From contig OY729431.1 in assembly GCA_963422395.1 (NCBI GenBank), forward strand, positions 2,528,001-2,592,000: a stretch of 64,000 nucleotides of DNA, given 5' to 3'. Source of the stretch: Vicinamibacteria bacterium. Its GTDB lineage: Bacteria; Acidobacteriota; Vicinamibacteria; Marinacidobacterales; Marinacidobacteraceae. Shown piece by piece: positions 7,687 through 9,735 of the stretch. The translations under genes and the position numbers were made by a program. Position 1 is the first letter of the stretch. Each line of letters begins with the position of its first letter. Below the pieces are notes generated by a model. The model saw only the letters and a program-made list of their open reading frames with translations. It made no database searches and was not told the origin of the DNA.

Positions 7687-9735
7687 GTCGCCCCCCGCAC
7701 GGGGGGCGCGGATTGAAACTTCTGGAATCGCACATTGGAGACATTGAATGCGGTGTCGCCCCCCGCACGGGGGGCGCGGATTGAAACCGTGAGGCTGTCC
7801 AGGATCTCTCCTGCTATGTATGGTCGCCCCCCGCACGGGGGGCGCGGATTGAAACTCCTTTGCCGGCTTGCCGGCGGTTGATGTTGGAGTCGCCCCCCGC
7901 ACGGGGGGCGCGGATTGAAACATCGCAGTCCGCGCATTTCCTCGCGTCGCTCTTTGTCGCCCCCCGCACGGGGGGCGCGGATTGAAACGCACGCTGGGGC
8001 AGGAAAGCCGAAGAGCTCTATGTCGCCCCCCGCACGGGGGGCGCGGATTGAAACTCATCGAACCGGGGGCAAGCCCCCCAAAGGAAAAAGTCGCCCCCCG
8101 CACGGGGGGCGCGGATTGAAACATCGTGTTTTTCCTTTGCCGGCGGGCTGCCGGCGTCGCCCCCCGCACGGGGGGCGCGGATTGAAACTGATCAGGATTG
8201 ACAATCGCTAGCCGACTGCGCGACGTCGCCCCCCGCACGGGGGGCGCGGATTGAAACGAGTGAACGGAACGCCATTCGCGTAGGCAGCCGAGTCGCCCCC
8301 CGCACGGGGGGCGCGGATTGAAACTCGTCTGTACGGCGTGCTGGGCAGCCCGTAGGGCAGCGTCGCCCCCCGCACGGGGGGCGCGGATTGAAACTCGTGT
8401 ACGGGCTGGTCAGCCCGCCCAGCCCAGCGTCGCCCCCCGCACGGGGGGCGCGGATTGAAACAGTGGGGTGCCGCCGCCGCGCAGTCCGCGCAAAGTCGCC
8501 CCCCGCACGGGGGGCGCGGATTGAAACCCTCTCTGGTCGCGATCATCGGCAGTCTGCCGCGTCGCCCCCCGCACGGGGGGCGCGGATTGAAACCCCACTT
8601 ACTGCCACGCTGCCCTACCCCATGCGTCGCCCCCCGCACGGGGGGCGCGGATTGAAACCATATCCGCATCGCATTCCGCGCAGGCCTTCACGGTCGCCCC
8701 CCGCACGGGGGGCGCGGATTGAAACTATTCCATCCGGACTTGGTCCGACACCGCCTTGAGTCGCCCCCCGCACGGGGGGCGCGGATTGAAACCACTTCCT
8801 GCTGACTGCGGCAGTCGGCATCTTGGTCGCCCCCCGCACGGGGGGCGCGGATTGAAACTTTGTCTCCTCCTCGATTTCCGCCCATCGGCGAAGGACGTCG
8901 CCCCCCGCACGGGGGGCGCGGATTGAAACTCCTTTGGCGGCCGGCGGCCGCCGTGTTGTTTGAGTCGCCCCCCGCACGGGGGGCGCGGATTGAAACGCTA
9001 GGCGGGCGTTGGATTTGCGCCTCCCGCCGCCGGTCGCCCCCCGCACGGGGGGCGCGGATTGAAACGTTGGATGCGGCCCGGACCAAAGCTCCTTGCATGC
9101 GTCGCCCCCCGCACGGGGGGCGCGGATTGAAACCTCCTTTCGGCGGCCGGCGGCCTCCGTGTTTGAGTCGCCCCCCGCACGGGGGGCGCGGATTGAAACG
9201 GTTGCGATTCGTGGAGTATGTCTGCTCGAATCGGGTCGCCCCCCGCACGGGGGGCGCGGATTGAAACCCTTCATCGCAACCGAACACCGCCCCCGGCGGC
9301 GTCGCCCCCCGCACGGGGGGCGCGGATTGAAACCTTTGGCGCCGGGTTAGGCGCCGGTTTGATTCGCGTCGCCCCCCGCACGGGGGGCGCGGATTGAAAC
9401 CAAGTGCACCTTGCCGGAGTGCTTTGAGGACCTGGGTCGCCCCCCGCACGGGGGGCGCGGATTGAAACTTCCTGGATTCGCGGCGATGATGCCGTGTTTC
9501 CTGTCGCCCCCCGCACGGGGGGCGCGGATTGAAACCGCGCGCGTGTCTGTCCCTAGTGGGGACGAGCTGCGTCGCCCCCCGCACGGGGGGCGCGGATTGA
9601 AACGCCAAAGCATCGCTGACGCTCGCGAAGCCCGCGGTCGCCCCCCGCACGGAGGGCGCGGATTGAAACTCCATGGATTGGCGCCGAGGAACCGGTGTTC
9701 CCGTCGCCCCCCGCGCGGGGGGCGCGGATTGAAAC
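7687..9735 (+). CRISPR. Type I-C CRISPR array: 31 repeats (33 bp GTCGCCCCCCGCACGGGGGGCGCGGATTGAAAC) and 30 spacers of 32-38 bp
   Basis: Counted by eye. The last two repeats (9637, 9703) each carry one substitution, consistent with the leader being on the left. Confidence 0.99.

Follow-up and report, generated by a model that had tools for sequence, protein, structure and literature searches.

A type I-C CRISPR-Cas locus

The window analyzed here, a 64,000-nucleotide stretch of the genome of a Vicinamibacteria bacterium (contig OY729431.1, positions 2,528,001 to 2,592,000), contains a CRISPR-Cas locus in whose array several spacers carry a G/C-rich hairpin directly before a ribosome-binding site; the origin of these spacers is the question addressed below. 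Pfam matches identify the complete seven-gene set of type I-C (cas3-cas5d-csd1-cas7-cas4-cas1-cas2), in order, at positions 3-7507 of the + strand. The set comprises the 3′ part of cas3, which runs off the window start (3-1586; Cas3-like_C_2, DEAD and Helicase_C), cas5d (2131-2802; Cas_Cas5d, E 8e-46), csd1/cas8c (2799-4568; Cas_Csd1, E 1e-182), cas7, or csd2 (4565-5509; Cas_Cas7, E 3e-99), cas4 (5509-6159; Cas_Cas4 and PDDEXK_1), cas1 (6168-7208; Cas_Cas1, E 2e-101) and cas2 (7217-7507; CRISPR_Cas2). A locally A+T-rich leader (7508-7686, + strand) lies between cas2 and the first repeat of the array (7687-9735, + strand), in which 33-nt repeats, 31 in all, alternate with 30 spacers of 32-38 nt.

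The locus belongs to CRISPR-Cas type I-C. Type I-C repeats are about 32 nt long, with a G/C hairpin and the end ATTGAAAC; the repeat found here in 31 copies reads GTCGCC...ATTGAAAC and aligns with arrays that adjoin annotated type I-C cas1c/cas2 genes on plasmids. The Rfam family CRISPR-DR9 matches all 31 repeats on the + strand, with a score under the gathering threshold; apart from chance miRNA matches, Rfam found nothing else in the array. The two degenerate repeats are the last two, at the array end away from the leader. From the side of the leader, the degenerate far end and the strand of the CRISPR-DR9 matches, it follows that the array is read on the + strand and that the newest spacers are S1, S2 and so on. 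The host genome (2.9 Mb, 68.4% G+C) holds no second array with the same repeat.

Spacers with a hairpin and a ribosome site

Six spacers, namely S3, S6, S7, S19, S22 and S25, share a layout in which an A/C-rich linker is followed by a GC hairpin of 5-8 bp and then by AAAGGA. On the - strand, S3 (7856-7888) reads CATCAACC, GCCGGC-AA-GCCGGC, AAAGGA; S7 (8123-8155) reads GCCGGC-AGCCC-GCCGGC, AAAGGAAAAACACGAT; S19 (8930-8963) reads TCAAACAACAC, GGCGGCC-GCC-GGCCGCC, AAAGGA; S22 (9134-9166) reads TCAAACA, CGGAGGCC-GCC-GGCCGCCG, AAAGGAG, with a single A.G mismatch among the 8 pairs of its stem; and S25 (9334-9367) reads GCGAATCAAACC, GGCGCC-TAACCC-GGCGCC, AAAG. On the + strand, S6 (8055-8089) reads TCATCGAACC, GGGGGC-AA-GCCCCC, C, AAAGGAAAAA. 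S24 (9268-9300, + strand; CCTTCATCGCAACCGAACA, CCGCC-CCC-GGCGG, C) is a partial member, with the linker and a 5-bp hairpin, and its end falls short of the AAAGGA position.

These seven spacers had been listed in an earlier interpretation made from the letters of the window (hereafter, the sequence-only reading), and their coordinates and sequences proved exact on re-reading. S17 and S27, which it had added as possible members, have hairpins and AGGAA-like strings, but neither AAC nor AAAGGA, and are for that reason left out of the count. Its observation that the stems vary while pairing is kept holds true, in that five different stems are all paired, that of S22 with its one mismatch. S19 and S22 are 95% identical over 22 nt, with small indels in the linker, and other features are shared in a network-like manner: loop and linker between S3 and S6, the stem between S3 and S7, and the tail between S6 and S7. 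A MAFFT alignment did not bring the hairpins of the seven spacers into register. Separately, the arms of the S6 hairpin (8065-8079; GGGGGC/GCCCCCC) are those of the repeat stem (GCCCCCC/GGGGGGC) in swapped order, a likeness that may be due to chance in G+C-rich DNA.

The protospacer-adjacent motif (PAM) of type I-C systems is 5′-TTC on the spacer-like strand (PMC5602111). The sequence-only reading had assumed this PAM, and contigs of one public sequencing run, X1, matched to the array, bear it out: for S4 the reading is direct, for S9 and S11 it is inferred. A 1057-nt X1 contig (depth 7.09) ends in C plus S4 and continues into non-repeat sequence, and in a second record the non-repeat letters before S4 end in CTT, which gives the flank TTC. 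In a 344-nt contig (depth 9.36), S9 is preceded by C and, before that, by non-repeat letters that end in ATT. The loose end in S11, taken on the opposite strand, would give the spacer start in complement and then GAA, going by an alignment that is shifted over a palindrome. At S14 there is a fourth loose end, which contains an indel and lacks TTC.

The foreign contigs at S4 (about 7921-7955), S9 (8257-8291) and S11 (8395-8428) have a depth of about 7-9, compared with 24-39 for contigs of the array and 54-61 for the host flanks of the array, which puts the foreign DNA at roughly one eighth of the host depth. The occurrence of these three protospacers in X1 indicates that the invader, or part of an invader, coexists with the host in the sample. 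Another X1 contig (depth 6.18) covers S6 with one extra G, which would result in a perfect 7-bp stem, GGGGGGC/GCCCCCC, touching AAAGGA; this contig may represent the S6 protospacer or a minor variant of the array, its depth being nearer to that of the foreign contigs than to that of the array contigs. X1 covers the array in part, several bins being empty, and two further runs, X2 and X3, do not cover it; neither is evidence of absence. The foreign flank 5′ of the S9 protospacer carries a 10-nt string, ACGGAACGCC, that is repeated inside S9, 24 nt apart. This flank is locally A+T-richer and has stop codons, and from its sequence it looks like a non-coding region with direct repeats, e.g., iterons or operators.

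The ribosome site of S6 and S7 continues as AAAGGAAAAA, the complement of which puts TTC exactly ahead of the first base of S25. S3, S19 and S22 begin with TCCTTT or CTCCTTT, and addition of TTC turns these, on the gene strand, into AAAGGAGAA or AAAGGAGGAA. If the PAM is TTC, the S7 target would read CACGATGAA, with ATG 8 nt past GGA. The 16S tail of the host is ...CACCTCCTTT, with the rRNA end ...GGATCACCTCCTTT.., and AAAGGAG is complementary to it. Thus, AAAGGAG is an extended Shine-Dalgarno (SD) sequence for this host.

The enrichment of the motif was assessed with a strict definition, i.e., a stem without mismatch, 5 bp or longer and with at least 4 G/C, a loop of 2-8 nt, a gap of at most 2 nt, and AAAG, on either strand. 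Five of the 30 spacers carry it (S3, S6, S7, S19 and S25). Mononucleotide shuffles (n = 2000), of the kind that had been proposed with the sequence-only reading, contain a mean of 0.042 motif spacers per 30, and none of the 2000 attained five. In the same shuffles any GC hairpin is expected in 2.5 spacers and AAAGGA in 0.31, versus 10 and 5 observed. Nor is the motif frequent in viral or host DNA. Among 34-mers adjacent to TTC it occurs in 43 of 12564 (0.34%) from the 45 viral loci described in the next section, after exclusion of 35 selected sites; in 29 of 22520 (0.13%) from the first 600 kb of the host genome; and in 40 of 39074 (0.10%) from 119 unrelated viral loci, or 0.15% in those with at least 60% G+C. 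Across the host genome a perfect hairpin abuts 18 of 530 AAAGGA sites, and 4 of these 18 are inside the array; beyond the array there are only 14 weak look-alikes.

As a further control we examined 452 unique spacers in 16 other type I-C array segments, which come from plasmids and from genomes within the order and the phylum of the host. None of these spacers has the motif (Fisher p 6.7e-7 versus the window array), and 29 (6.4%) have a GC hairpin, versus 33% in the window array (Fisher p 3.5e-5). The motif is therefore real and far beyond chance, and it is not a general habit of type I-C adaptation. SD-like 5-mers are also in excess, in 16 of 30 spacers compared with 22-23% in both control sets, as is to be expected of a region of short genes.

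Cassettes of the same layout in viral contigs

The sequence-only reading had called for a search of viral and plasmid databases with the spacers, and this search did not recover the protospacer of any motif spacer from any collection scanned. With the whole array as query, blastn against GenBank phages returned three weak partial matches, the best of which (35 nt, 88.6%) spans a repeat border. Nine PLSDB plasmid records matched, all of them through other CRISPR arrays; the host genome gave itself plus short G+C-rich chance matches and nothing else; and 28 genomes of the family, 55 of the order and 401 of the phylum gave only partial matches or other arrays. One of the 55 (G030), flagged as unpublished, yielded chance matches at most and supports no claim made here. 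In IMG/VR, exact or degenerate searches with the cores of S19/S22, S25, S4 and S9 returned no match each. Metagenome contigs and genome contigs, scanned with the S19/S22 core only, contain it at 21 and 7 loci, respectively, with no match past the core. Because S4 and S9 are present in X1 yet absent from IMG/VR, the invader simply lies outside the collections scanned.

Sites of the same layout are, however, present in viral contigs. A generic pattern modeled on S3 and S7 (GCCGGC, 2-5 nt, GCCGGC, AAAGGA) yielded 45 IMG/VR loci with 42 unique sites, none with the loop and flanks of S3 or S7. These sites share features that the pattern did not request. ATG or GTG lies 3-12 nt past the motif in 37 of the 42, so that the start codon foreseen by the sequence-only reading after AAAGGA is indeed found in viral analogues. 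AAAGGAA occurs at 27 of the 42 sites, TTC within 20 nt upstream at 17, AAC among the last 8 nt before the hairpin at 22, and a stop-codon triplet within 30 nt upstream at 27; G amounts to only 14% across the 14 nt upstream. An open reading frame (ORF) of at least 63 aa follows in 41 of the 45 loci, and the 41 proteins fall into 29 unrelated groups. When 20 of these proteins were compared with PHROG families, 10 had no match, 9 matched only families of unknown function, and 1 was FtsK-like. The neighboring genes include those for SSB, RdgC, RusA and methyltransferases, as in the early regions of temperate phages.

A second pattern, modeled on S6 (GGGGGC, 2-5 nt, GCCCCC, 0-1 nt, AAAGGA), gave 38 IMG/VR sites in 37 loci of 33-72% G+C, with a start codon and an ORF of at least 50 aa at 30 of the 38 and with loops that are often GNRA or UUCG. 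Within this set (L240-L276), GGGGGC and GCCCCC enclosing a tetraloop (GCAA, GAAA, GTAA or TTCG) before AAAGGA and a start codon are common at 33-58% G+C. In the locus L249 (+ strand, about 389-1630) there are three cassettes in a stretch of about 1.3 kb. They precede ORFs of 96, 56 and 114 aa, all have a aacaaacaaacc-type linker, and one has its stem flipped. As far as sequence can tell, their grammar is that of S19, S22 and S25. Among the S3/S7-pattern loci, eight have two cassettes each (L016, L019, L022, L025, L029, L030, L045 and L046), with the second one 320-1020 nt off, carrying a GCCGG-type stem and AAGGA, AGGAG or GGAGA. Many of the cassette contigs are mosaic relatives, and homology between them often begins or stops at the cassette, as in L020/L047 (-664 to +4), L018/L023 (-631 to 0), L045/L046 (-9 to +1864) and L024/L040 (-7 to +706). 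The strict cassette occurs only 3 times in the 119 unrelated viral loci (1.11 Mb), and is thus rare in general.

That one phage may carry several cassettes bears on whether the motif spacers could derive from a single orthologous intergenic site, or two, resampled from successive variants of one phage and not multicopy at all. The 95% identity of S19 and S22 would suit such resampling, as would S27/S30 and S10/S11, which look like variant pairs elsewhere in the array. We nevertheless judge it quite improbable, as the seven spacers have five unrelated stems with differing linkers and tails, the features of S3, S6 and S7 form a network and not a tree, and real contigs with two or three successive cassettes exist. 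The proposal of the sequence-only reading that the invader carried a multicopy hairpin element before its ribosome sites is accordingly realized in viral contigs; for the actual invader, it rests on this analogy and on the reticulate likeness of S3, S6 and S7.

We also considered whether the hairpins might not be gene-start cassettes, but intrinsic terminators, integron attC sites, REP-like repeats or ends of insertion sequences (IS). Terminators are suggested by some viral cassettes that are preceded by a terminator-like hairpin with a T run; in L046, this separate hairpin lies just upstream of the linker. On the coding strand of the spacers, however, the hairpin is followed by AAAGGA and by no T run, and the strings after it on the other strand, GTTTGA, GTGTTGTTTGA or GGTTGATG, are weak T runs. 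No terminator consisting of a hairpin and a T run was called at the cassettes of L016 and L025. The attC core pair has the consensus RYYYAAC ... GTTRRRY; an AAC linker does precede the hairpin here, but AAAGGA and not GTTRRRY follows it in all 6 complete spacers.

The closest likeness to an insertion sequence is an IS256-family element of about 1.37 kb in three genomes of the same order (G031, G032 and G033; e.g., L098, about 1949-3310). The start of its transposase gene is preceded by TCAAACC, a 6-bp hairpin and AGAAAAGGAG; about 70 of the 74 pattern matches in G031 have the 34-nt string of this IS, and G032 and G033 hold many copies. Its leader is enclosed by a longer inverted repeat (GATGTATGGTTC ... 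GAACCATACATC), which would bury the ribosome site and the start codon. As a source of the spacers the element was rejected, because the spacers match it over at most 9 nt, or over 17 nt at 88%, and the host lacks such a transposase. Given also that the host genome has only weak look-alikes outside the array, we regard an identity of the hairpins with any of these other elements as highly improbable.

Several known systems have a similar design. Intercistronic hairpins that end or stabilize the upstream mRNA lie directly before the next ribosome site in phiX174 (J-F, F-G and G-H) and in the puf operon of Rhodobacter. Those are single sites between cistrons with measured effects on mRNA, whereas the present cassette family is defined by sequence and its function is inferred. 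The promoter-early stem-loop (PeSL) elements of T4-type phages are repeated intergenic cassettes with a G/C stem-loop "generally involving GGGG...CCCC" (PMC2839356, PMC4122927). They stand before small genes without known homologs, serve as exchange points of otherwise unrelated sequence, and combine a strong sigma-70-like promoter with a stem-loop that works as a terminator (PMC2839356). The viral analogues likewise lie at borders of homology and before genes of unknown function, and their GGGGGC...GCCCCC stem-loops recall those of PeSL (PMC2839356). They differ in that no sigma-70-like promoter was found at the cassettes of the two loci scanned (L016, 8700-9700, and L025, 5400-6600), where a T run is lacking as well, and in that the hairpin-to-start distance of viral cassettes is only 12-16 nt, too little to accommodate a promoter. 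The element conserved together with the hairpin is here the ribosome-binding site, and hosts and base composition are different.

In Cluster K mycobacteriophages, SAS and extended SAS (ESAS) elements occur in many copies, with an SD core 3-7 bp before the starts of non-structural genes (PMC3203893, PMC12699233). SAS is a fixed 13-mer, GGGATAGGAGCCC (at most 2 mismatches), and about half of its copies are directly preceded by an inverted repeat with a variable spacer (PMC3203893). The inverted repeat of ESAS has imperfect 17-bp arms of conserved sequence and a 4-13 bp spacer, and the function of these elements is unproven (PMC3203893, PMC12699233). An inverted repeat directly before an SD-containing string near a start codon, many copies, and G+C-rich phages are common to both systems. 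The 13-mer GGGATAGGAGCCC, however, is present in none of the window spacers, in which the conserved string is AAAGGA(G), and their arms are 5-8 bp long with loops of 2-6 nt, variable in sequence with pairing kept, and have an A/C-rich linker on the 5′ side. Rfam gave no match at E up to 1 in four cassette-bearing loci. As a sequence family, the cassette thus matches neither PeSL, nor SAS/ESAS, nor any Rfam family; yet the claim of an undescribed cis-element or gene-cassette system was overstated, since PeSL and SAS/ESAS share its design logic (PMC2839356, PMC4122927, PMC3203893).

Source of the motif spacers

With somewhat better than even confidence, we propose that the seven spacers were cut from copies of an intercistronic cassette on foreign DNA, most likely that of phage, some copies probably being paralogues in one genome and others variants in related genomes. 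Such a cassette would comprise the upstream gene's end, a linker poor in G and rich in A/C (..TCAAAC.., ..ATCAACC..) and a GC hairpin of 5-8 bp with a loop of 2-6 nt, then AAAGGA(G) in contact with the 3′ arm and, after about 6-10 nt more, a start codon; the cassettes would precede runs of small accessory or early genes. Each would bring its own PAMs: GGAA or GGAGAA directly past the hairpin reads TTCC or TTCTCC in complement, and a T/C-rich stretch before the linker would often supply another TTC. With PAMs on both sides, a protospacer of 33-35 nt taken from either would span the whole hairpin.

In the eight two-cassette viral regions, 25 of 144 TTC sites (17%) give a 34-nt protospacer that includes the whole hairpin, close to the 7 of 30 spacers (23%) in the array, although the 17% is an upper-range estimate because the regions were chosen afterwards for holding two cassettes. 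An array that samples a cassette-dense region would thus have the motif in about one spacer in five to six, without further bias. New spacers in type I-C priming are acquired preferentially near the first target (PMC5602111), which would favor the sampling of such a stretch. The data therefore point to invaders packed with gene-start cassettes and not to a new kind of system.

The manner in which the eight regions were chosen is one of several points that weigh against this proposal. The motif spacers are not significantly clustered along the array (P 0.10), and one priming episode would predict clustering. With a pattern modeled on S25 (GGCGCC), a start codon plus ORF followed at no more than 3 of 12 sites. 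Hairpins other than the selected ones abut 21 of about 785 AAGGA sites in the 45 viral loci, and a fold-energy scan, which is noisy in G+C-rich DNA, placed 31% of 524 putative gene starts at or below -7 kcal/mol, versus 25% of control windows; given so few abutting hairpins and so small an excess, most viral relatives are not cassette-dense. Finally, no motif protospacer was found in the collections scanned.

The density figure also removes the need for the special acquisition hotspot that the sequence-only reading had put forward. According to that idea, which we think unlikely, the adaptation machinery or the nucleases that feed it take cassette sites beyond their share of PAMs, owing to the folding of single-stranded DNA or to the ribosome site's T-rich complement, which would be a scarce favored place for cutting in G+C-rich DNA. 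Cutting by Cas3 in T-rich sequence was reportedly described by Kunne et al. in 2016. Consistent with a hotspot, hairpins are found in 10 of 30 spacers compared with 12.6-12.8% of TTC-adjacent 34-mers from G+C-rich viral DNA, and the SD complement lies within the PAM-proximal 12 nt of 6 of 30 spacers compared with 4.0% in both control sets. In another type I-C system, with a TTC PAM and spacers of 33-37 nt, TTC sites were used very unevenly; one protospacer dominated acquisition whichever strand primed, and the authors suspected secondary structure of single-stranded DNA (PMC5602111). That hotspot was one site, in a plasmid replication gene and in a laboratory assay, whereas here a class of sites is concerned, in a natural array (PMC5602111). 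The 16 other type I-C array segments, moreover, are without bias: none of their 452 spacers has the motif, the PAM-proximal SD complement is found in 18 of 446, and their hairpin frequency is below background. Acquisition beside restriction cuts, considered for the palindromic hexamers GCCGGC and GGCGCC, was dropped, as the spacers hold intact sites.

Alternatively, motif spacers might be retained longer. If cassettes are common to otherwise unrelated mosaic phages, one spacer guards against several of them, or several sites; selection of this kind would be compatible with, and a third factor beside, cassette density and a hotspot. Viral contigs with non-aligning flanks do share matches confined to the cassette, 32-65 nt long at 83-97% identity (L020/L034, 39 nt, 95%; L034/L047, 41 nt, 95%; L046/L047, 34 nt, 97%; L043/L044, 32 nt, 97%), but the search pattern itself fixed part of each of these matches. 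The related spacer families S4/S12/S15, S19/S22 and S27/S30 suggest repeated encounters with related invaders. Against this, at least five stems among seven spacers would afford limited cross-protection, escape through a changed PAM, directly 3′ of the ribosome site, would be cheap, and no phage matching any motif spacer was found. We therefore consider a role of retention doubtful.

Returning to the intercistronic cassette as the source, we ask what its hairpin might do. On the evidence of its layout, we see about an even chance that it is an RNA element marking the border between cistrons. For the upstream part, the hairpin would be a barrier to 3′ exonucleases or would attenuate read-through, and the next ribosome site would stay single-stranded at a fixed distance. 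This interpretation is based on the contact between hairpin and ribosome site, on a G-poor linker that cannot pair with that site, on the lack of a T run, and on the pairing that is kept while the stem changes, both among the spacers and in L249. A purely structural role is called into question by the S3/S7-pattern viral family, which keeps GCCGG/CCGGC in its second copies too and may do so for a DNA- or RNA-binding protein.

A more far-reaching joint reading, which we put forward tentatively and deem improbable, is that the folded module is a preferred substrate of type I-C capture and that the invader, a phage or another mobile element, has an accessory region of interchangeable small-gene cassettes, each of them opened by a hairpin and ribosome-site module that is defined by its fold, with conserved pairing, free stem sequence and an A/C-rich linker. 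The array would then be a fossil record of that region, a G+C-rich counterpart of PeSL and ESAS. If it were true, arrays could be mined for cis-elements, and the module would offer a defined sequence for tests of "hot" protospacers. If cassette density is the explanation, the motif spacers are a tidy but ordinary consequence of their source. Natural arrays are usually lists of past invaders, and this one also reports on invader architecture. In viral contigs the module is seen where mosaic exchange has its borders, and with two or more different stems; the few phage regulatory cassettes described so far, whose function is unproven, thereby gain a G+C-rich example. It also provides a concrete case for the question of what makes acquisition so much more frequent at some PAM-flanked sites than at others. 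Overall, the sequence-only reading is borne out as regards the PAM, the ribosome site and the presence of multicopy cassettes of this kind in phage DNA; its hotspot was not needed, and its novelty was overstated.

The array has other sets of related spacers, S4/S12/S15, S27/S30 and S10/S11, which suggest repeated contact with related invaders. S27 (9469-9502) and S30 (9670-9702) share a stretch with 82% identity, and S10 (8325-8361) and S11 (8395-8428) both start TCGT..GTACGG; to judge by sequence, each pair looks like one site taken from two variants. S27 is also the most strongly folding spacer (-16.0 kcal/mol, z -3.95). S4, S12 (8462-8494) and S15 (8659-8692) have CGCA[G/T]TCCGCGCA in common, in different registers, and each can be translated on the opposite strand, without a stop, as Cys-Ala-Asp/Glu-Cys. 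Their probable target is a conserved motif of zinc-finger-like type, carried by related or paralogous genes. The pattern of these three occurs in at least 119 IMG/VR loci; among the matches listed, the best spacer identity is 26/34, and the proteins are unrelated except for one recurrent family of about 660 aa.

Two ORFs near the array and the cas genes are without a Pfam or NCBIfam match. One of 694 aa (10667-12751, + strand) lies 3′ of the array, past a CutA1 gene on the opposite strand. The other, of 182 aa (1583-2131, + strand), fills the gap between cas3 and cas5d and may represent an unknown accessory gene or, given the G+C-rich DNA, a spurious frame.

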